From: Pseudomonas phage EL
Sequence record: AJ697969.1
DNA length: 64,000 nucleotides
Strand: one strand, 5' to 3'
Shown: positions 11,078 through 50,170 of the stretch, piece after piece
Position numbering within the stretch: position 1 is the stretch's first letter
Layout: each line of letters begins with the position of its first letter
The notes under the pieces: generated by a model
The model's input: the letters and a program-made list of their open reading frames with translations, nothing else
Told to the model about the DNA's origin: nothing
Database searches by the model: none
Made by a program: the position numbers and the translations under genes

Positions 11078-14000
11078 ATGACAGACGAACAAGACACATC
11101 CCTTTCCTATGCTAAATGGTTGGTTAAGTACCTGAGATGCAACAACCTGCCCAAAGAACTGATCGATGATAAACGCCTCCGTATTGATTGGGAGGCTCGA
11201 ACAGACGATGAAACCCTTTTAGCTCACTTCAATGAAGACAGCTTAAGTGGTATTAAGACTGTTCGTTTTCTCAAGGACTTTTTCAACTACCAAGCGGGTT
11301 ATGATCGGGAGACCCGGAATACCAGTTTCCTCAGAACCACCGAAGTGTTCAGGCAACAGGGGATCAATAACTTTTACTTCATCCTCCAATTGAACAATCC
11401 CCTGTTGAAAGGGGTGGATCCCTTTGATCCTAACCTCACTCCTGAGCAACAGGTGTGGGTCCTGGAGGAGTGTCGGAGTAACTTTTGGTACTTCCTACGG
11501 GAAGTTTGCCGGTTAAAGCCGAATCAGCCCTTCTTAGCGAACCGGGGGAATATCAGCTTTATTTGGTCGTATTTGAATCACATTACCACCTACATGATCA
11601 TGCCGCGGCAACAGGGTAAGCAGCAGCGGAACAGTGCTAAGGTTCGTATTGTGCCTAAGGATACCCTGAAGACTATTACCCCTCAGGATACTTGGAAACG
11701 GATTGAACACCTACGGGTGGGGGATCAAGTCCTGGACCGTTCCGGGAAGCCGTGTCAGGTGATTGGCATTCATCCCCAGGGTAAACGCCGGTTGTATCGC
11801 GTCATTACCAGTGACGGACGAGCCACGGATGTAGGGACTGAACATCTGTGGACCTTGAAGGATTATTCCAACTGCCTCAATGGACGTGCACTCTGGAATG
11901 ACTATTCGACCGTTGATGTCATTAACCTGTTGAAGAAGAAGGTTAAACTTCAATTGCCGTTACCGGCTCCGGTACCCGGGAGTGAACAGGACCTACCTAT
12001 TGACCCGTACGTTCTCGGGTTGATCTATTGCGGACAAGATCAAGACGGTAAGGTTATTATCCCCACGCGTACGGATGCGGTTAAACAGTACGTAGTTGAT
12101 CATCTCCCTCGGGGGGTAACAGTTATTCAGGGAGTGGCTAACAGTTGCTTAGAACGGACTGATAACCAACCTTATTTATTCAACAGGGAACACGGTTTAC
12201 CGGATCAATACCTAGAAGCCCCTTTAAACGCCCGGAGAGACCTCTTACAGGCGTTTTTAGACGTTAGGGGTAAGGTTGGTAGGGGTAAGGTCTTTATAGC
12301 CTTAAATCGCGTCCTAGGAGGTCAACTGGCGTATTTAGCCCGTAGTCTAGGTGGAACCGGTAAAGTCACCAAGAACGGAGTAGAGATTACCCTACCGGAA
12401 GAGGTGCCTCCGTTCAAGTTCAGGGAAGAGAATGTCGTCTTTGATAATCGGTTGCTGATCGAGCGGGTGACTTTCGTAGGGGATGACGATTGTACCTGTA
12501 TTGAAGTCGATAACAGTGAACAGTTGTATTTGACCGATGACTTCATTGTGACCCACAACACGGTATCGGTTCAGGTGATTGACTTCTGGTTAACGTACAT
12601 CATGGGCCGGGGGTATACGAGCCACTTGATTACCTTGAAGTCGGATAACCGAGCTCAGTTCATTGCGGCTATTAAGCAGATACGGAGTTCCATTCCCTCG
12701 TATTTGATTAACTCGACCTACAAGGACAAGGATGCTGGTACCAGTCTGACCTACAAGGCCTTTGGGGAAGATAACGTTAATACGCTGTACATTAACGTCC
12801 CTCAGATCAGTCAGGATGCAGCAGGGGATCTCGGTCGGGGGTTACGGGTAGGGACTACCAACTACGATGAGTCCGGGTATATTCGGTTCATCGACACCAT
12901 CATTGACGGGTGTTCCCCGTCCTCGCTAACGGAAATGGCGTTGTGCAGAGAGCAGGGGTTGCCGTATGGGATTACGCACATTACGACCCCCAATACCACG
13001 CTCCATCCCAGCGGGGAGTTTATGTTCAATAAACTCATGAGTGCAACGGAGTGGCGGGAGAAGTTCTTTGATTGCTTCAGTGAGAGTCACTTGAGGCAGA
13101 TGTTACTCAGGGCTTCCCCTACGAAGACAACCTCTCCGTCAGTCTCCATGGTGTACAATTACCTTCAACTGGGTAAGGACAAAGCCTGGGTGCGGGAAAC
13201 CATTGACCTGCTAGGATTGAGTTTGGCGAAAGCCAAGATCGACTTATTGCTCATGTGGGTGGAAGATGGGGAGAATCGGTTGTTTGACGATGTGACCCGG
13301 GAAGCCATTAACAACATGAAGCGGGACGTGGTGTGGAGTAAGGAGTATCGGGACTGTAACCTGTACGTGGACTTCTTTGTGACCCAACAGGAATTGTTGG
13401 AGATGGCAAAGAAGGAGTACAATGACCATTTCCTGATTGGTGTGGATACGTCCTCAGCCATTAACAAGGATGCCTGCACCATTGTGATTCGCAGTATGAA
13501 GACGGGTAAGGTCATTGGGGTGGGACGATATCCCTTAACCTTCTTGGATGATGTCACAGCCATTGTTGTGGATTTGCTGGACGTGATTCAGAACAGCACC
13601 TTGATCATAGAGCGTAACTACGCACATCACATGATCGACAGTCTGTTGATTATGCTGCCGGCTAAGGGTATGGATCCCTTTAAACGGGTCTTTAACCAAA
13701 TCTACCAAGACACCGTCAATAACGCCAAGGAGTTTGAGGAAGTCCAGAACACCAAATTTGCTTACCGGAATAAAGCGTTCTACCTGAAGTATAAACAATA
13801 CTTCGGGTTCGTGACGACCAAGACCACTCGGGACGTCCTGTACGGCCTCATCCAAGAGGCGGTTGGGAATACCGGGTACGGCCTCTGTTATGCGAAGCTC
13901 GCGGATGAATTGATCAACCTGAAACTCAAGGGGGATCGAATCGACCACGATGCGAAGCAGCACGATGACTTGGTCATTGCGTGGCTACTGAGCTACTGGT

Positions 14001-14344
14001 TCATTAAGCTCGGGGAGAACAAGTCCTTGTACGGGATCCCTCCGGGGATTGCCTTAACGGACACCCGTAACCTACTGAACTCTGCTCAGAACCAAGGACG
14101 AACCGAGTATGAGCCGTACGTGGTTCAACTCATCGATAAAGTCCGGAGTAAGGTTCACAGCCTAACTGAAGAACTGATGAGCACCCAGGACAATATCTTA
14201 GCACTTCGTCTAGAGGTGGAGATTCGGAAGTTAGCCAAGATGTTGCCTCCGGAACAGAATCGCATGATGACCATTGACGTGCTGTTGGAGAACGCTAAAG
14301 TGGAACGCAACAAACGCCTACTGCAACAACGCAGAACAGCATAA
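11078..14344 (+). CDS. terL: terminase large subunit, interrupted by an in-frame intein
   Basis: Extein N-part ends ...MPRQQGK and C-part resumes TVSVQVIDFW, reconstituting a T4 gp17-like Walker A (RQQGKT). The C-terminal region FLIGVDTSSAINKDACTIV ... HDDLVIAWLLSYW is the RNaseH-like terminase nuclease domain. Confidence 0.8.
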   Translation: MTDEQDTSLSYAKWLVKYLRCNNLPKELIDDKRLRIDWEARTDDETLLAHFNEDSLSGIKTVRFLKDFFNYQAGYDRETRNTSFLRTTEVFRQQGINNFYFILQLNNPLLKGVDPFDPNLTPEQQVWVLEECRSNFWYFLREVCRLKPNQPFLANRGNISFIWSYLNHITTYMIMPRQQGKQQRNSAKVRIVPKDTLKTITPQDTWKRIEHLRVGDQVLDRSGKPCQVIGIHPQGKRRLYRVITSDGRATDVGTEHLWTLKDYSNCLNGRALWNDYSTVDVINLLKKKVKLQLPLPAPVPGSEQDLPIDPYVLGLIYCGQDQDGKVIIPTRTDAVKQYVVDHLPRGVTVIQGVANSCLERTDNQPYLFNREHGLPDQYLEAPLNARRDLLQAFLDVRGKVGRGKVFIALNRVLGGQLAYLARSLGGTGKVTKNGVEITLPEEVPPFKFREENVVFDNRLLIERVTFVGDDDCTCIEVDNSEQLYLTDDFIVTHNTVSVQVIDFWLTYIMGRGYTSHLITLKSDNRAQFIAAIKQIRSSIPSYLINSTYKDKDAGTSLTYKAFGEDNVNTLYINVPQISQDAAGDLGRGLRVGTTNYDESGYIRFIDTIIDGCSPSSLTEMALCREQGLPYGITHITTPNTTLHPSGEFMFNKLMSATEWREKFFDCFSESHLRQMLLRASPTKTTSPSVSMVYNYLQLGKDKAWVRETIDLLGLSLAKAKIDLLLMWVEDGENRLFDDVTREAINNMKRDVVWSKEYRDCNLYVDFFVTQQELLEMAKKEYNDHFLIGVDTSSAINKDACTIVIRSMKTGKVIGVGRYPLTFLDDVTAIVVDLLDVIQNSTLIIERNYAHHMIDSLLIMLPAKGMDPFKRVFNQIYQDTVNNAKEFEEVQNTKFAYRNKAFYLKYKQYFGFVTTKTTRDVLYGLIQEAVGNTGYGLCYAKLADELINLKLKGDRIDHDAKQHDDLVIAWLLSYWFIKLGENKSLYGIPPGIALTDTRNLLNSAQNQGRTEYEPYVVQLIDKVRSKVHSLTEELMSTQDNILALRLEVEIRKLAKMLPPEQNRMMTIDVLLENAKVERNKRLLQQRRTA
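11621..12559 (+). mobile_element. intein with LAGLIDADG-type homing endonuclease remnant, inserted in the terminase P-loop after GK
   Basis: ends ...LYLTDDFIVTHN with +1 Thr; internal HPQGKRRLYRV...DGRATDVGTEHLW Hint block; LGLIYCGQDQDG and LLQAFLDVRGKV LAGLIDADG-like blocks; first residue Gln (non-nucleophilic). Confidence 0.65.
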
Positions 14345-16159: not shown

Positions 16160-17008
16160 TTAATTCCGACGTGGTGTTGCCATCCGTATTGCTTCAATAC
16201 GGGCTTGTTTATCCGACCACGTCATGCAGTTGATCCATGTGTTCTTGAAATACTCTTTGTATTGGGTCCACGCGTCACTGTAGGCCTGTATATCGTCCCG
16301 TATGGCGTCTAGGGGAACGCCTGAGCGATAAACCGCCTCTTGGGTAGGTCGCCTACAGGTTTTGTAAATATACGCCTTAACGGCCAATTCAACGAGCTCT
16401 GCGAACTGCCGGTAATGACGAGGGTGAATACTGCTCATCCCTTCATCGTATTCCAAGATTACTTTAGCACTCATGGAATACGTTCCCGCATTTAACCCAA
16501 AGATCACAAAGCAGTTATTACCGGTCATATGGACATTGGTGAACGTGACTGGCATACTGCGGTTAGAACTCAATCCCCCCAGTAAGCCATCCATCATGTC
16601 ATTCAGTACTCCGGACCCACACATCGTGTTCTCATTCACCCCGGCTCCTAACTGACCAACTGCGGAACTCATACTCCCCAGGTAGACTTCTGTCACACTG
16701 ATGATTTTAGCACCCCGAGTCGTCGCTTCCGGTACGTTCACCTCTACACACCCATTCCCCCGATCACGAATCATGGATCCTCCCAGATCCAACAACTCCG
16801 TCTTCCCACCCCCTACGTTACATTCCGGTAGAACAATACGGTGAATCACTTTCTCCCGTATACCCTGTTCCACGGTTGTCTGGTTAACCAGGTTATACCA
16901 ATTCCCCGCATAGTTCGCATTGGGGGTTTCAAAAGCGAGCTTCAACAAGTACTCATCGATATCACTGCCACTTACGACACGATTGATAGCATGGTCTACT
17001 GGATTCAT
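16160..17008 (-). CDS. hypothetical protein (282 aa)
   Basis: ORF; its 5' end faces the 650-bp divergent noncoding region. Confidence 0.55.
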   Translation of the reverse strand: MNPVDHAINRVVSGSDIDEYLLKLAFETPNANYAGNWYNLVNQTTVEQGIREKVIHRIVLPECNVGGGKTELLDLGGSMIRDRGNGCVEVNVPEATTRGAKIISVTEVYLGSMSSAVGQLGAGVNENTMCGSGVLNDMMDGLLGGLSSNRSMPVTFTNVHMTGNNCFVIFGLNAGTYSMSAKVILEYDEGMSSIHPRHYRQFAELVELAVKAYIYKTCRRPTQEAVYRSGVPLDAIRDDIQAYSDAWTQYKEYFKNTWINCMTWSDKQARIEAIRMATPRRN

Positions 17009-18713: not shown

Positions 18714-19676
18714 ATGTCTCAGATTCAATACTACCTCATGGGCGGCGCGGGTATCAACATTGGTGCGGGTTTGAAAGAATATTCCCGTACGCGTGTGAAC
18801 AGTGATGCGGGGATGGTAGGTTTCGATACCAGTGATAAGAACTTCACGGCCGCGTTCCCCATTGAGCAACTCGAAGGGGTGAACGGGAGTGGTAAGGATT
18901 CCACCAAGCACTATGACAAACTCCTCCCCTTCGTAGCGGCTAACCTGAAGAAACACCGTCCCGGTGTTCACAACATCATCGTAGCCAGTACCGCTGGTGG
19001 TACTGGGCGTGTTATGGCGATGATTGCGTTGCGCCTGCTGGTCGAGTCGGGTAAAAACGTCATTCTCTGCCTGATCTCGGAACACACTTCCCTGGTGGAT
19101 AAAGAAAACGCAGTCAATGCCCTCCGTTCCTTTGCTAACCAGTGCCAACCCAATCAGCTGAACCGTCCGGTGTGCTACATGGAGTTCCTCAATACGCCGA
19201 ACCTGACCCGTAAGGAAGTCAACCTTCAGGCGATTGATTCACTGAATCTCCTGAGTCTCCTCTTTGATCCCGGTAATACGGAAATCGATGAGGAAGACAT
19301 TAAACGCTTCTTCAATTACTCGGCGGGGGGTAAAACCAGGCCGGCGTTGAGTCGTATTCATTTCTACGACCAGGATGGTGCAGCGGACTATACCGGTAAG
19401 GTACCGGTCTCGGTCGCCAGCCTGTACCCGAACAACGATGACGTGGTTCCTCGGTTTATGGGATCGGTTTACCGGACGACGGGTATTTTCTCCCCCAACA
19501 GTGATCGTCCGGAGGACATCAAAGAGCTGCACGTGACCCTCGATCACGGTGAAGCCCTGGAAGAACTGGAGAAAGAGATCGAAGGGCTGGAAACGGTTCA
19601 AGCTCAAGCTGCCGTTGACTTCTCTCAACAGAAGGACATTTCGGAAGGATCGAACGATCTGGGCTTCATGCTGTAA
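18714..19676 (+). CDS. phuZ: PhuZ-like phage tubulin/FtsZ-family GTPase
   Basis: MSQIQYYLMGGAGINIGAG (tubulin/FtsZ G-box N-terminal glycine loop) and IVASTAGGTGRV (tubulin T4 signature GGGTGSG-like); size 320 aa with acidic C-terminal tail, as in PhuZ. Start at 18714 chosen downstream of the two terminators. Confidence 0.8.
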   Translation: MSQIQYYLMGGAGINIGAGLKEYSRTRVNSDAGMVGFDTSDKNFTAAFPIEQLEGVNGSGKDSTKHYDKLLPFVAANLKKHRPGVHNIIVASTAGGTGRVMAMIALRLLVESGKNVILCLISEHTSLVDKENAVNALRSFANQCQPNQLNRPVCYMEFLNTPNLTRKEVNLQAIDSLNLLSLLFDPGNTEIDEEDIKRFFNYSAGGKTRPALSRIHFYDQDGAADYTGKVPVSVASLYPNNDDVVPRFMGSVYRTTGIFSPNSDRPEDIKELHVTLDHGEALEELEKEIEGLETVQAQAAVDFSQQKDISEGSNDLGFML

Positions 19677-44707: not shown

Positions 44708-47700
44708 ATGGTAATGAAGATCAAACTCCGTGAATGGGCTAATTTACCAGAAGAAACTGTTCTCCGTTGGTTAAACACCCGCCGGTGGGTGGAGGTCACG
44801 GATGACCTGGACCAAGTCGCTCTAACGGATACCTACGCTCTGATCATTACCTGGCATGGAATGATCATCCACCGGCATTATAACGATGTCCCCTATTCCA
44901 TTAAGGAGATGGTACCCAGTAACAAGGTGGAAGGGGGTGAAGACACCGTCTATAACGATGGAACCAACGCGACGCCTATTAACCAGTTCTTAAAGGTCAT
45001 TCTTCCTACGATTATTGACCCGGTGGAAGTGGACGGGATTAAACGGCTTATTCATATCTGGCAGAATAAGCTGAATAACCTGCTGGTGGTGATGAGTGAA
45101 CGTTACGTTATTTCAGCCACCGCTGAATCCGTAGCGGAGTTCATGGAAGATGAAGGGATCTCTGGAATACGGGACCGTGTCCTGAGCAAGGAGATTTCAA
45201 TTGATGAGGGTGAGCGGGAGTTTGCGGATTATGTCCGGACCGCTCATTCCATTGCCAACAACACCCTCACCCTGCTGTCGCGTACGGGCGGGGTGGCCAT
45301 TAACCAGGCGTATCAGAAGACGATCATCCGGGGTAAAGTCTTTGACCTGAACAACTCGATCATGCCGAATGCGATTACGGTTCCGTATGCGCATGGGATT
45401 ACCAACCTGGCTGATATGCTGGGTGAACGGAATGCAGCAGGTAAAGCCGGGGTTTTGTCTTCAAAGATAAAAATCCCTGGTGGATGGAAGACCATGGGTA
45501 ACATCCGGGTGGGTGATGAAGTCGTTACACCCGATGGAGGTACCGCTAAGGTGCTGGCAGTTCACCCACAAGGTGTAACCAAGGTTGTACGGGTGCACTT
45601 CAAAGACGGTCGATATACTGACGTTAGTCCAGATCACCTGTGGAAGGTTAGACGTCATCATTGGTGCAACGATAAAGCCATGGCTAAACTCACTCGGGAG
45701 GAAGTGGAAGAACGTGTATGGCGAGTCATCACCACCAATGAGTTGAAAGACTATATTGGTCTGTCAACTAAGGTATACGTCCAACTGATTGAACCTGAAA
45801 GAAATGCCGATAAACCCTTCAAAATTCACCCGTATGTGCTCGGTGTCTTGTTGGGGGATGGATGCATTAGTCAAAAGGCTGTGGATATCACCAAACCTTA
45901 TCAACAGCTATTCGATAAGGTCCAATCGCTATTGCCAGAACATTTGGAATGTGTTTGGCGACCCAACCGTAAAGGTGATGGAGAACCTAAAACGTTTGGG
46001 ATCCGTTTTAAAGATCGTCGGTCCGAACAGCACATCAACTGGCATATCCGTGATGGCCTGAAGGAACTGGGCTTGTATGGAATGCGGTCGTGGGGAAAAG
46101 TCATTCCCGAAGAATATCTTCACGGATCGGCTAAACAACGTTTGGAGCTCCTCCAAGGACTGTTGGACACAGACGGAACTGTGGACAAACACAAATCGGT
46201 TAGCTTTAGCTCTTCGTCTAAGTTACTCTCCCTCGGAGTGCAATACTTGGTCAGAAGCCTAGGGGGGATGGCACGTCTCCAAGAACGTACTCCCCACTAC
46301 ACCCACAATGGAGAAAAAAGGGAAGGTCGTACGGACTATCGGGTTTATATCCGATACCCTCGACCAGAAGAACTCTTCACCCTAGACCACAAACGGGAAC
46401 GTGCGGTCTCGCACCAGCATACGGAAACCCTGAGACTGCAAGTAACTCATATTGAAGAACGTCCTGATGAGGAGACACAATGCATTACGATCGATCATCC
46501 TGATCATCTGTACATTACAGACGACTTCATTGTCACCCACAACAGCCTAACCAATAACGGCAAGGCCCTGAAATCATCGGAATGGTTCCACCGGAAGGTA
46601 CACATCCTGTCCGCTGTGGTGGCGGATATCGATCATTTCATGGACTGTGGAACGACCACTACAGTGCCGATCCGAATTCCCAATATGCAAGCGGCAATGG
46701 CACTGTTGGGTAAATTCAGGGTAACCGATACAGGAGAATTAGAACTCATTGATCAAACCACGGTGTGGTCAATTAAGCCAGGGGAGTGGGTTAATATTCG
46801 TAGTGTGGCCTTCTGTAATCACTACAATAGTGCTTCACCCTGCCGGGTATGCTACGGGATGATGGCGAGCTCTATCCCGTATAACGTGATGATGAAGAAA
46901 GGGGCTGATGTCGGGATGTGGTGTACCACCTCGATCTGTAACCCCATCGGCCAGGGAATGCTCTCCACCAAGCATTTCATTAGGAATGCAACGACCCGTA
47001 AGTTCGTTCCTGCGACTAAGGATAAGAACGTTATCTATTCCAATGGTGACGATATTTTCCTGACTAAGGAACTCTGTGCACCGGGCACTGAATTGGTGCT
47101 CAAAGCCGATATTGTAAACATCCTCTCGGATATCCGTTCCTTGGATGTTCTGGACAACTTGAGCCTGGATAAACTCCCGTACTTCTCTGAAGTCACATTC
47201 CGCTATGAAGTCGAAGACATCATGATGGGGGGTAAAACCCTCCAGCAGCATGCGGCTTGTACCTCGGTGTCGTCTCGGAATGCCCGGTTCTCGTTGGAGT
47301 TCCTGAACTATCTCCTGAGTAAAGGTTGGGCGAACGAAGGTAAGAAACATATTACCGTTGATTTGAGTGAATGGAATACGCTCAGTCCTATCTTCACACT
47401 GCCGTATGTTCGTGAAGACTTGGACATGCACCGGGCTCGGGTAGAGAACTTCATCACGTTCAATAAACGCAATAACGCCTGGAGACAGCAGATCGTTACA
47501 CCCCGTCTCTTTGGTGAGGTCTTAGCGGAATACTGGGGATTGATCAACCAGGAAACGAAAGGGATTAACATCATCCATCCTGAGGTCTTGCTCTATTCCA
47601 CGTTGTGTCGGGATCCCATGCGCGGGGATTATTCCCTGGCGAATGGTAAAGGACCTAAGTATTTCGTGAACTTCCAGGAGTGTATCAAAGGCAGGGGGGC

Positions 47701-47818
47701 GGGTATGCTCATGATCTACGAGAACCAGCAAAATGTGCTAAGTGATCCTAAGACATTCCGTGTGGTAAACCGTCAGGGGAGTCCGCTGGAGTGCTTCTTT
47801 AGCTTAGCGGTGAGTTGA
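44708..47818 (+). CDS. multisubunit RNA polymerase beta' subunit, C-terminal part, interrupted by an intein in the bridge helix
   Basis: after in-silico splicing, [28 protein letters not shown] ~ [28 protein letters not shown] (bridge helix); [21 protein letters not shown] ~ [45 protein letters not shown] ~ [25 protein letters not shown] (trigger loop). Confidence 0.75.
   Translation: [1036 protein letters not shown]
45446..46543 (+). mobile_element. intein with full LAGLIDADG homing endonuclease, inserted after GK in the beta' bridge helix
   Basis: starts [17 protein letters not shown] (Ala1), Hint block [39 protein letters not shown] motifs [13 protein letters not shown] and [12 protein letters not shown], ends [12 protein letters not shown] with +1 Ser. 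Confidence 0.7.
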
Positions 47819-47881: not shown

Positions 47882-50170
47882 TTGATTATGCGAGCAACAG
47901 CAACTATCAGCAAAGCGAATCATTACTTCAGAATCAACGGGTTCTATGAGGAATTCGCGGTTCGGGTAATCCTACCGTTTTGTAAACTGAATCTCTGCAA
48001 GATGGCTAAGAAGCCAATACCGGGTACCCGGAAGCAGGCGTGGTTTGTTCAACACGTCTTTGCTCGGTCGAATTATGACAAGAGTGAATACCGGCTACCC
48101 ATTGAAACCCTTAAAGAGTTTGTGGAATTTGCGGGCTACCGGGGGTATAAAGAATCCCGCTTGAAGATTCAGGATGAACCGGAGATCGAAGGCAAGGATG
48201 TTGTATTCGAATTCAATCCAGGGTTTGATCAGTTCAGGGAAGGTCAAGGTGAATGGATTGAGTACATGCTGAGCGATGGGCACCTGAAGGTCAATAACGC
48301 CTCCACAGGCTTTGGGAAGATGCAACCGCTGTACGCGAAGATCAAAGTCCCGGGTGGTTGGAAGACAATGAGGGAGATGACCGTCGGTACCGAGGTCATT
48401 GCAGCGGATGGTACGGTCACTCAGGTGACTGGTGTTTACCCACACGGTAAACAACCCATTTACCGTTTGCACTTCGAAGACGGGCGTTATACCGATGCAG
48501 GACTGGATCACCTGTGGAAAGTGTTCACAGAGGAGACTCAGGCATGGACAGTCGTTAATACCCGTTCCGTACAGACCCTGTTGGCGAAAGAGCCGGATGG
48601 GGTATTTATCCCTCTGTGTGAGCCTGAAGACGGTCCGGAGAAGCCCTTTGTAACGGACCAATTGGAAGGTTCCCGCCAACAACGGTTGGAACACCTACGA
48701 CGACTCATGGATGAGAAAGGGTATGTGCGTGATGACGGTAGTCTGTCCTTTTCCAGTGAGGATGAGGTGGAAAGCACTACGGTTCAATACCTGGTTAGGA
48801 GTCTAGGGGGTATTGCCCGAAAGGTACCGTCTACAGGACTGTACCGCCGCAGGCAATACCGGGTGTACATCAAGCACCCTCGTCCTGAGGAACTCTTTAC
48901 CCTGACGAATAAGGGTGGCTACCTGACATCAAAGTCGGGTAACCAGTCCCTTAAGCTCCGGGTGAACCGCATTGAATTCATTGGGGAACATGAAGCCCAG
49001 TGCATCTCTGTAGCACACCCGGATCGTCTGTACATCACGGATGACTTCATCGTCACCCACAACACCTATATGGCCATCCACAGCATGGTGAAGATTGGTA
49101 AACGGACCTTAATCACCATGCAACCCCGTTACCAGATCAATTGGGTACGGGAACTCAACAAGATCGTTAAACTCATTCCAGGGGATCTCTTAATCTGGGA
49201 GAATACCCTGGAATCGTTGTATGAGTGTTTAGAAGACGGGAAGTTTGATCCTAAGATCATTATTATTCCGATGTCTCGTATTGAGGTCTTCCTCCGTAAA
49301 GGGAAAGAGACCCGAGACGGGTTACACATGGATGATTTGATCAAACGGATCAATCCGGGATTAAGGATCATTGATGAAGGGCATGAAGCGATTCATCAGA
49401 TCTTCTTGTCCTTAATGTTTGGGAATATCAAGAAACTCTTCCTGCTCTCAGCCACCTTGAAAGCAGACGATCCCTTTACGAACAAGATGTACCAGTACTT
49501 GTTCCCTAAACGGTTACGGTTAAAGGAGGCGGAACCCGAGCATTACATCGATGTAGTGGCGTACCTGTATCGCCTCAACACCCGTCGTTATCATCTCAAG
49601 ACGGAGCAGTTTGGAGCGTATAACGATAAGACGTTTGAAAAGAGCATCTTAAAGTCGGGTGTACTCCTGGCATTCTACTTTAAATTGGTCAATAAGGCCT
49701 TTAAGGAGTATTACCTCAATGTGAGGCGTGAAGGAACGAAGTGTTTGTTCTTCTTCTCCAGGGTCAGTATGTGCGATGCCATGTTGGAACTGTTCAGGAA
49801 AGAATATCCCGGCTGGGATTTCGAAACCTTTACTGGGGACGATTCCAAGCTGAAAGATAAGAAGGACAAGTACTTAAAGCACGAGATCATCATTACAACT
49901 CCGAACAGTTGTGGAACAGGTAAGGATATCGGGGGGTTGGTGACGGTGATCTGCGCCCACACGGTTGCGTCGACTCAGGCTAATAAGCAGATCATTGGAC
50001 GACTCAGGGCGTTGTCGGGTAAGTTCAATAATGAGATCGACCCTGCCTTTGTGTTCCTGGTGTGTTTGGACTTAGCGAAGCACGTGGAATATTTAGCCAA
50101 ACGGGAACAGGTGTTCTTTGAGAAACAGAAGACCTTCAAGCGTATCAATTCGGAATGCTCCCTGGACTGA
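47882..50170 (+). CDS. SF2 DEAH-box helicase interrupted by a mini-intein in the Walker A P-loop
   Basis: extein junction [17 protein letters not shown] reconstitutes GxGKT; downstream IIDEGHEA (DEAH box); AAGAGG RBS. Confidence 0.7.
   Translation: [762 protein letters not shown]
48320..49063 (+). mobile_element. mini-intein (248 aa) with degenerate homing endonuclease, inserted after GK of the helicase P-loop
   Basis: starts [17 protein letters not shown] (Met1), Hint block [30 protein letters not shown], only the second LAGLIDADG half remains ([16 protein letters not shown]...[10 protein letters not shown]), ends [12 protein letters not shown] with +1 Thr. Confidence 0.65.

Follow-up and report, generated by a model that had tools for sequence, protein, structure and literature searches.

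A probable class 3 intein in the terminase P-loop of Pseudomonas phage EL, with a degenerate homing endonuclease domain

Class 3 inteins are defined by a non-nucleophilic residue 1, the WCT residues at positions B:12, F:4, and G:5, and a Ser or Thr at +1 (Tori et al. 2010, PMC2807308). Their prototype is the DnaB intein of mycobacteriophage Bethlehem (MP-Be DnaB), and their occurrence in phage terminase P-loops has been on record since 2010 (PMC2807308). The WCT residues at the same three positions have also been described together with a Lys|Thr site in the P-loop of TerL that is called "classic", and class 3 was explicitly assigned to TerL1-c, -d, and -e (PMC5050341). Here we analyze a terminase gene interrupted at such a site in Pseudomonas phage EL, within a window (the whole stretch of DNA under analysis) of 64,000 nucleotides from record AJ697969.1. 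Sequence comparison, structural modeling, and analogy with characterized inteins make it highly probable that the insert is a class 3 intein at the classic TerL P-loop site, that it splices out, and that it is most likely a homing-dead, vertically inherited passenger.

The ORF at 11078..14344 is, judging from its sequence, the terminase large subunit, and it is the one terminase copy in the window. Its 1088-residue product is identical at every residue to CAG27105.1/YP_418044.1 of phage EL; it is gp11 of this phage, a protein already known. Membership of the terminases follows from the match to PHROG 2 ("terminase large subunit"), which has E = 3.6e-54 for the insert-free (spliced) sequence versus 4.8e-48 for the precursor, and from the Walker A motif PRQQGKT, which is regained once the insert is deleted. 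Sequence searches with the spliced terminase and extein sequence gave no useful match in Pfam or PDB. Hence, the likeness to T4 gp17 that an earlier sequence-only reading saw in the P-loop holds at the level of the motif and of the PHROG 2 match, and does not extend to Pfam or PDB. The gene is divided as follows:

11078..14344, + strand: gene for the precursor of the terminase large subunit (1088 aa and 124.9 kDa; the coordinates include the stop codon), matching PHROG 2.
11078..11620, + strand: N-extein, 181 aa, ending in ...PRQQGK, the first half of Walker A.
11621..12559, + strand: predicted class 3 intein, 313 aa, 35.2 kDa, from Gln1 to Asn313.
12560..12562, + strand: Thr+1, the first C-extein residue, with a predicted double role as Walker A Thr (GK-T) and second splicing nucleophile.
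12560..14344, + strand: C-extein, 594 aa plus stop, with the remaining ATPase domain and the nuclease domain.

The insert (nt 11621..12559) consists of 313 in-frame codons (codons 182-494) placed between the Lys and the Thr of Walker A. It starts with QQRNSAKVR and ends with FIVTHN, followed by Thr, the flanks being ...MIMPRQQGK on the N-terminal side and TVSVQVIDFW on the C-terminal side. Its deletion yields PRQQGK|TVSV. Five homologues lack the insert (P0091, P0100, P0104, P0108, and P0109; 775-780 aa, 51-55% extein identity) and align across the junction without a gap, reading PRQQGKTVSAQ, PRQFGKTVSAQ, or PRQQGKTVTAQ. Because of these gapless alignments, the junction is known to the single residue. 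The sequence-only reading had placed an intein exactly between GK and T, with extein halves rejoining as RQQGK|TVSV, and had named the alignment of an insert-less homologue as a check; the five homologues bear out both the position and the rejoined sequence. The spliced product is predicted to contain the junction peptide ...MPRQQGKTVSVQ..., in which GK|T is a trypsin cleavage site, and the unspliced precursor the reporter peptide ...FIVTHNTVSVQVIDFWLTYIMGR. GC content leaves no foreign mark on the insert (0.492 vs 0.490 in the exteins). A search within it for an antisense or out-of-frame endonuclease ORF found only unsupported, mechanical ORFs of 79-80 aa on the minus strand.

A start of the intein about 10 residues downstream was suspected, since the alignment with the gp41-1 intein begins at intein residue 19 and since IVPKDT resembles the canonical block A sequence CLxxDT. 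It was rejected because the insert-free homologues set the junction at GK|T, and because short family members such as P0056 ("LQRLSNLIRMDNGSW") place the additional residues in a loop inserted behind strand 1, which excludes an N-terminal extension as their source.

By its sequence and its modeled structure, the insert is an intein with a Hint fold and blocks A, B, F, and G, as had been proposed for the Hint blocks; from the essential P-loop that it interrupts and from its catalytic residues, we infer that it is excised and the exteins ligated. A phmmer search of PDB matches it to the gp41-1 intein (7e-7) and to the class 3 Msm DnaB intein 6bs8, the alignment with the latter pairing ctCIEVDNseqLYL...THN with vrCVEVDNpehLYL...THN. 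The AlphaFold model of the insert (pLDDT 97.1, pTM 0.93) retrieves with Foldseek PI-SceI (2e-12), 6bs8 (2e-6), and the TliVMA, PI-PfuI, gp41-1, and Prp8 inteins, with I-DmoI matching the central domain. In Pfam, precursor and insert match only PF05203 (Hint), at 20.3 bits, which is below the cut-off of 32.1, so that the intein would escape Pfam alone. The two parts of the splicing domain are:

11621..11956, + strand: N-terminal half of the splicing (Hint) domain, with blocks A and B in intein residues 1-112.
12446..12559, + strand: C-terminal half of the splicing domain, with blocks F and G in intein residues 276-313.

The N-terminal half carries, between strand 1 and the invariant Trp25, the clade-specific loop insertion of about 9-10 residues (IVPKDTLKTITPQDT). 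A loop of some 10 residues after the N-terminal strand could in principle alter the geometry of the active site.

The class assignment draws on a set of 108 homologous inteins located at the same terminase site, with extein identities of 26-100%. The residues that matter for it are:

11843..11851, + strand: block B core His75-Leu76-Trp77 (B:10-B:12), aligned with HqW of 6bs8; Trp77 is the W of WCT.
12497..12499, + strand: Cys293 (F:4), predicted initiating nucleophile and the C of WCT, invariant in 108/108.
12551..12559, + strand: Thr311 (the T of WCT), His312 (penultimate), and Asn313 (putatively cyclizing), at G:5-G:7 and invariant in 108/108.

His75 and Trp77 are invariant as well (108/108), and every one of the 108 members has Thr at +1. 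In the alignments, Cys293 falls on the Cys in block F of 6bs8 and on D107C, a residue engineered into the gp41-1 variant 6riz. Residue 1 is free of such constraint: it is M in 23 inteins, L in 22, A in 14, F in 13, E in 10, Y in 8, G in 6, P in 5, Q in 3 (phage EL has Gln), D in 2, and C and S in one each, i.e., it is non-nucleophilic in 106 of the 108. The EL intein thus combines Gln1 with Trp at B:12, Cys at F:4, Thr at G:5, and Thr+1, as class 3 inteins do. In this class the Trp stands two residues behind the block B His, and the +1 residue is Ser or Thr and only rarely Cys; the Cys of block F is obligate, forming a branched intermediate that thiols can resolve and permitting N-terminal cleavage even when the +1 nucleophile is missing. 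Class 1 would have Cys, Ser, or Thr at position 1, where EL has Gln, the start being fixed by the insert-free homologues; class 2 would lack both the N-terminal nucleophile and WCT, and WCT is present and invariant. At block B:7, where Thr or Ser is usual, the EL intein has Gly, which is compatible with class 3, since B:7 is dispensable in these inteins (PMC2807308). That 108 inserts at the same site have invariant catalytic residues in common excludes chance. The remarks made earlier on the two ends of the insert, a THN terminus followed by Thr and a first residue that is Gln instead of Cys or Ser, both hold; as a pattern of sequence, Gln1 is a class 3 signature and no anomaly.

The steps of splicing can be proposed after the class 3 scheme established for the Bethlehem DnaB intein. 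Translation would give a 125-kDa precursor with an interrupted ATP-binding loop. The thiol of Cys293 (F:4), aided in its positioning by His75 and Trp77, would attack the Lys181-Gln182 bond, and the N-extein would be held on Cys293 as a thioester branch before its transfer to the hydroxyl of Thr+1. Cyclization of Asn313, assisted by His312, would free the 35-kDa intein, and an O-to-N shift would then restore a normal Lys-Thr peptide bond and with it PRQQGKT, the presumed end product being an active terminase of 775 aa and 89.7 kDa. Because Cys293 would start the reaction and no nucleophile is needed at residue 1, this position is free to vary, and is Gln in EL. Selection is expected to preserve the splicing competence of the intein, since packaging of phage DNA would be impossible without splicing.

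Alternative readings of the same residues concern the first step and the boundaries. In a class 2 (KlbA-like) route, Thr+1 would attack the N-terminal junction directly and Cys293 would merely assist. This route shares with class 3 a non-nucleophilic residue 1, and in a homology model the +1 side chain and the Cys of block F are at about equal distances from the scissile bond (PMC2807308). Class 2 is, however, defined by the absence of WCT (PMC2807308), whereas W77, C293, and T311 are invariant in 108/108 inteins and the Cys of block F has its aligned counterpart in 6bs8, an experimentally characterized class 3 DnaB intein; we regard this route as very unlikely. A standard class 1 intein with other boundaries, for example starting at Ser186 (intein residue 5) and leaving QQRN in the terminase, is extremely improbable. 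Ser is indeed common at intein positions 5 and 6 (37/108 and 62/108, respectively), but it is unconserved, position 6 of EL being Ala and many relatives having no Ser, Cys, or Thr there, and it was rejected as a hidden class 1 nucleophile for this reason. Moreover, GK is directly followed by T in the insert-free homologues, so that an alternative boundary would leave surplus residues in the P-loop.

One may also ask if the insert splices at all. It might be a decayed, non-splicing remnant or a domesticated domain, with the 1088-residue polypeptide serving as a functional (or non-ATPase) terminase. The homing endonuclease is already degenerate, the database entries give a 1088-aa product with no intein annotated, and a literature search yielded no direct splicing data. 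Against this, the terminase is an essential motor with a single copy in the window, and its ATP-binding loop would be disrupted by 313 residues lodged between the Walker A Lys and Thr. Furthermore, residues with a role only in splicing (C293, N313, H312, W77, and Thr+1) are invariant even among highly divergent relatives, whereas the rest of the intein drifts down to about 28% identity, which is the pattern one would expect if splicing is under selection. This makes retention of the insert highly doubtful, and a class 3 intein that splices out is the reading that we prefer.

The central part of the intein comprises:

11957..12445, + strand: homing-endonuclease domain of the LAGLIDADG type, degenerate, spanning intein residues about 113-275.
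12005..12049, + strand: remnant of LAGLIDADG motif 1 (PYVLGLIYCGQDQDG), with the catalytic Asp of intact relatives (LGVLLGDG) deleted.
12233..12271, + strand: remnant of LAGLIDADG motif 2 (RRDLLQAFLDVRG), with the catalytic Asp replaced by Arg; intact relatives have LLQGLMDTDG.

The two-fold alpha-beta-beta-alpha-beta-beta-alpha fold is kept, as seen in the order of secondary structures in the model and in the Foldseek matches to I-DmoI and to the endonuclease domain of PI-SceI. The motifs have decayed to LGLIYC-GQ (vs LGVLLGDG in intact relatives) and FLDVRG (vs LMDTDG). The proposal that the insert contains LAGLIDADG-like blocks is therefore right for the fold, while the motifs themselves are degenerate and have lost both catalytic acids. 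Pfam finds no LAGLIDADG match in the EL terminase intein; the paralogous gp39 intein passes PF14528. Active endonucleases have two motifs ending in a catalytic Asp or Glu, which is not the case here, and both acidic motifs are absent from 89 of the 108 family inteins, including the one of EL. To judge from these sequences, the domain is probably not an active homing endonuclease, and homing is probably dead because both catalytic acidic residues are lost.

The distribution of the intein is in line with this. The same split gene is found in seven isolated, viable phages, and the intein is present in all 74 matches with extein identity of at least about 63%. Alleles free of the insert are seen only beside clades whose LAGLIDADG motifs are intact. 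Pairwise identities of the intein correlate with those of the exteins (Spearman 0.80), with the intein diverging faster (for example, 57% vs 81% identity for P0002), and between EL-like isolates pN/pS is similar in intein (0.04-0.07) and exteins (0.00-0.09). The intein thus looks fixed and vertically inherited in the EL clade. With both catalytic acids lost and the fold kept, it has most likely become a passenger, fixed and passed on vertically, that no longer homes. By analogy, one could imagine that such an endonuclease-less, fixed intein under purifying selection has been co-opted as a conditional switch in the PhuZ-encoding, EL/RisingSun-like jumbo phages, redox- or metal-sensitive splicing at Cys293 holding back activation of the packaging ATPase until infection has reached the appropriate stage or compartment. 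The analogue is found in M. smegmatis, whose class 3 intein in DnaB responds to stress. We consider co-option improbable.

The genome of phage EL was sequenced in 2005, and we take it that InBase lists "PhiEL ORF11", "PhiEL ORF39", and "PhiEL ORF40" inteins for this phage. Besides the terminase insert, the window harbors two sister inteins of class 3, one in the gene for RNA polymerase beta and one in a helicase gene. The second host protein is the same as CAG27133.1, whose accession is offset by 28 from CAG27105.1, which equals the difference between 39 and 11; the gene of the third host is adjacent. Because of this protein identity, offset, and adjacency, the three inteins of the window are very probably the three PhiEL entries. 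The EL terminase intein is real, well understood, already known, and conforms to the textbook. No intein is annotated for the window protein in the public GenBank, RefSeq, and UniRef records, and a search of the open-access literature turned up no paper on the EL terminase intein or on any Chimalliviridae terminase intein. Dozens of jumbo-phage orthologues are equally without intein annotation in public records, and the insert is probably the reason why several of them carry a wrong label, "ATP-dependent DNA helicase" or "DarB-like antirestriction". The general biological import is small, as the class was defined in 2010, partly on P-loop inserts of phage terminases and helicases. In practice, phylogenies and size comparisons of jumbo-phage terminases should use the spliced 775-aa sequence. 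The family also provides a natural series of the homing cycle, from polymorphic forms with active-looking endonucleases to fixed forms with dead endonucleases and perfectly conserved splicing residues, and phage EL, with its three related inteins of class 3, offers compact candidates for protein-engineering tools free of an N-terminal Cys.

Among the described systems, the Bethlehem DnaB intein (PMC2807308) has in common with the EL intein WCT, a His-Asn C-terminus, and Thr+1, and its residue 1 is Pro, as non-nucleophilic as the Gln of EL. Both are encoded by phages, lie within an ATPase, and have an embedded LAGLIDADG domain, with similar sizes (341 aa vs 313 aa in EL). The host protein is a helicase in Bethlehem and a terminase in EL, and splicing was shown biochemically for the former, whereas for the latter we infer it; EL differs further in the loss of both LAGLIDADG catalytic acids and in the extra loop of block A. 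The TerL1-a inteins of mycobacteriophages (Kelley et al. 2016, PMC5050341) interrupt a large terminase at the same place, with the invariant Lys of Walker A on one side and the nucleophilic Thr on the other, a position called "classic" for P-loop inteins in that study, but in an unrelated terminase family (Pfam terminase_1) and in unrelated hosts. Mycobacterium smegmatis DnaB intein 1 (class 3, 6BS8) belongs to the nearest solved splicing domains in both sequence and fold. It aligns residue for residue with EL at HxW of block B, C-[VI]-E-V-D-N...LYL of block F, and THN, although it is a 139-residue, endonuclease-less splicing domain from a bacterial helicase, with about 12-13% identity over the structural alignment. 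The best whole-chain structural match is PI-SceI, the yeast VMA1 intein (Foldseek E = 2e-12, TM 0.64-0.68 on the query), which resembles the EL intein in its two-domain architecture and ATPase host, and differs from it in being eukaryotic and class 1 (Cys1 and Cys+1); it is a full-length intein whose LAGLIDADG endonuclease is active, and it has an additional region for DNA recognition.

The terminase large subunit gene carries an in-frame insert of the same composition as the exteins (GC content of 0.492 and 0.490, respectively), which runs from QQRNSAKVR to FIVTHN between ...MIMPRQQGK upstream and TVSVQVIDFW downstream.

11078–14344, + strand: terminase large subunit ORF, 1,088 aa
11621–12559, + strand: in-frame insert (intein), exactly 313 codons, residues 182–494

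As a full-length precursor, the protein falls in PHROG 2 (terminase large subunit; E = 4.8e-48), and the match improves to 3.6e-54 when the insert is removed. Because Pfam and PDB sequence searches do not recognize this divergent terminase, its description as T4 gp17-like in the sequence-only reading holds for the Walker A motif (SRQLGKT in T4 gp17) and not beyond it. Among 120 relatives listed from a search over 5.8 billion proteins, 108 (approximately 1,030–1,150 aa) have an insert at the same site. Five closer relatives lack it (P0091, P0100, P0104, P0108, and P0109; 775–780 aa, 51–55% extein identity to the EL protein) and read PRQQGKTVSAQ, PRQFGKTVSAQ, or PRQQGKTVTAQ at the junction. The same reading, which proposed that an intein splits the P-loop, expected homologs without the insert to align across the junction, and these do. 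Since they align straight over it, the boundaries can be taken as fixed by sequence comparison at Lys181|Gln182 and Asn494|Thr495; a class 1 intein with shifted boundaries is excluded by the same homologs. Lys|Thr is the "classic" P-loop insertion site of inteins (Kelley et al. 2016, PMC5050341).

The inserted segment is an intein that houses a LAGLIDADG-type domain, so that the Hint and LAGLIDADG-like blocks noticed earlier are confirmed by sequence searches, model, and structure comparison. In the PDB, phmmer matches it to the gp41-1 intein (7e-7 and 8e-5), the class 3 DnaB intein of M. smegmatis (6bs8, 1.5e-3), MchDnaB-1, and, weakly, PI-SceI. The AlphaFold2 model built from a 52-sequence alignment (mean pLDDT 97.1, pTM 0.93) has a central α-β-β-α-β-β-α repeat between β-rich termini. 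Its top Foldseek matches in the PDB are full-length intein-endonucleases, namely PI-SceI (2e-12, TM 0.64–0.68 on the query), TliVMA, PhoVMA, and PI-PfuI, followed for the splicing domain by the mini-inteins 6bs8 (2e-6, TM 0.71–0.77 on the target), MchDnaB-1, gp41-1, and Prp8, and then for the central domain by I-DmoI. Pfam finds Hom_end_hint alone and below threshold (20.3 bits versus 32.1), which accounts for the absence of intein annotation from every public terminase ortholog record examined. The intein-bearing terminase is called "putative ATP-dependent DNA helicase" in EL UniRef, RisingSun, Joad, phiKT1019, and phiKT1028 and "DarB-like antirestriction" in Aphrodite1, PDCC-1, and Miami, and many further records say "hypothetical protein"; the helicase and antirestriction labels are likely misannotations arising from the similarity of the intein to helicase inteins.

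Residue 1 of the 108 aligned inteins is Met (23), Leu (22), Ala (14), Phe (13), Glu (10), Tyr (8), Gly (6), Pro (5), Gln (3), Asp (2), Cys (1), or Ser (1), and is therefore essentially unconstrained and non-nucleophilic. Invariant in the 52-sequence alignment are W25, G42, D65, H75, W77, C293, T311, H312, and N313, and the first C-extein residue (+1) is Thr in 108 of 108. Counting from His75 at block B:10 places Trp77 at B:12. Thr311 is G:5; Cys293, in CIEVD, replaces the usual F:4 Asp and pairs with the block F Cys of 6bs8 (vrCVEVDNpehLYL...THN). Class 3 inteins are defined by the triplet Trp B:12/Cys F:4/Thr G:5 (WCT), a non-nucleophilic residue 1, and Ser or Thr at +1 (Tori et al. 2010, PMC2807308; Kelley et al. 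2016, PMC5050341). By these sequence features the terminase intein, with its Gln1, is class 3, and the Gly at B:7 in most family members fits the class 3 variant of block B. A class 2 splicing mechanism is very unlikely, the WCT triplet excluding it by definition. A start some 10 residues further downstream was dismissed, the extra residues being a loop after strand 1 that is found in the EL clade only, is missing from shorter members such as P0056, P0057, and P0062, and is modeled confidently (block mean pLDDT 93).

11648–11692 (intein residues 10–24): clade-specific loop insertion IVPKDTLKTITPQDT, between the first block A β-strand and invariant Trp25

In the class 3 pathway proposed here, Cys293 would attack the Lys181–Gln182 bond to form a block F thioester branch, the N-extein would pass to Thr+1, Asn313 would cyclize with the assistance of His312, and an O-to-N shift would restore the Lys–Thr bond. 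Splicing of the 124.9-kDa precursor would thus release a 35.2-kDa intein and leave a terminase of 89.7 kDa in which the PRQQGKT loop is whole. A remnant that no longer splices is hard to reconcile with the data, as Walker A would stay interrupted, and Asn313, His312, Cys293, and Thr+1 are invariant. That splicing occurs is supported indirectly, by the split P-loop of an essential motor encoded by a single terminase copy in the window, by the same arrangement in at least seven isolated, viable phages, by splicing residues that remain invariant although overall intein identity drops to approximately 28%, and by an intein pN/pS of 0.04–0.07 among EL-like isolates, comparable with the exteins.

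In the EL terminase intein, LAGLIDADG motifs 1 and 2 are degenerate (LGLIYC-GQ and FLDVRG, versus LGVLLGDG and LMDTDG in intact relatives), so that both catalytic acids are missing. Both acidic motifs are lost in 89 of the 108 inteins and kept in 15, all in distant clades with at most approximately 45% whole-protein identity. Among the matches listed, the intein is present in all 74 relatives with at least approximately 63% extein identity; alleles that lack the insert have as their nearest neighbors clades whose endonucleases look intact (for example, P0108 shares 79% identity with P0081, which bears the intein). Divergence of the intein tracks that of the extein (Spearman 0.80 for the distances), the intein evolving faster. 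This pattern fits the standard homing cycle of invasion, fixation, and endonuclease decay, with splicing kept by selection. Non-synonymous changes are sparse in the decayed domain (pN/pS 0.10–0.32, from small counts), a scarcity that probably reflects a need to fold for splicing. Relative to the EL-like isolates L002, L003, and L004, synonymous differences cluster at 11078–11956, which spans the N-extein and the opening 112 codons of the intein (pS 0.15–0.19, versus 0.015–0.09 in the C-extein), and this cluster may represent a patch of recombination.

The window contains two more inteins of class 3 type.

44708–47818, + strand: RNA polymerase β-subunit gene with the second intein (PHROG 3015, E = 1e-217 after intein removal)
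about 45446–46543, + strand: second intein, 366 aa (AGVLSS...HLW...QCITID...IVTHN|S)
47882–50170, + strand: DNA helicase gene with the third intein (PHROG 16)
about 48320–49063, + strand: third intein, 248 aa (MQPLYA...HLW...QCISVA...IVTHN|T)

The third also divides a P-loop, exactly at TGFGK|T, and its endonuclease domain is partly deleted. The second is inserted after ...GERNAAGK and, unlike the terminase intein, keeps both acidic motifs (LLGDG, LLDTDG) and passes the Pfam PF14528 threshold, and may therefore still be mobile. It shares 40–44% identity with inteins from the terminases of other jumbo phages (P0076, P0080, P0112, and P0117) but only 27% with that of EL's own terminase, which suggests, from sequence identity, that the family moved between different host genes sharing the GK|S/T site.

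The terminase precursor (1,088 aa) does not differ from CAG27105.1/YP_418044.1 of Pseudomonas phage EL (211,215-bp contig). Close relatives are placed in Elvirus and encode the PhuZ tubulin, whose gene lies approximately 4.4 kb downstream of the terminase gene and marks a nucleus-forming jumbo phage. In the isolate MIZ-Pa99 (L001) this gene is at 16637–17599 of L001, equal to 18714–19676 in both the record and the window; the record is filed as Straboviridae, at odds with the Elvirus placement of near-identical relatives. We found no paper specifically on EL's inteins in the open-access literature; the EL genome paper of Hertveldt et al. in 2005 reportedly mentions LAGLIDADG endonucleases tied to inteins. 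InBase presumably lists "PhiEL ORF11," "ORF39," "ORF40," and "Helicase" inteins. This listing is supported by the further inteins in the RNA polymerase gene, whose product is identical to EL CAG27133.1, and in the next gene, as the accession offset (27133 − 27105 = 28) equals 39 − 11. The terminase intein is a standard member of the class defined in 2010.
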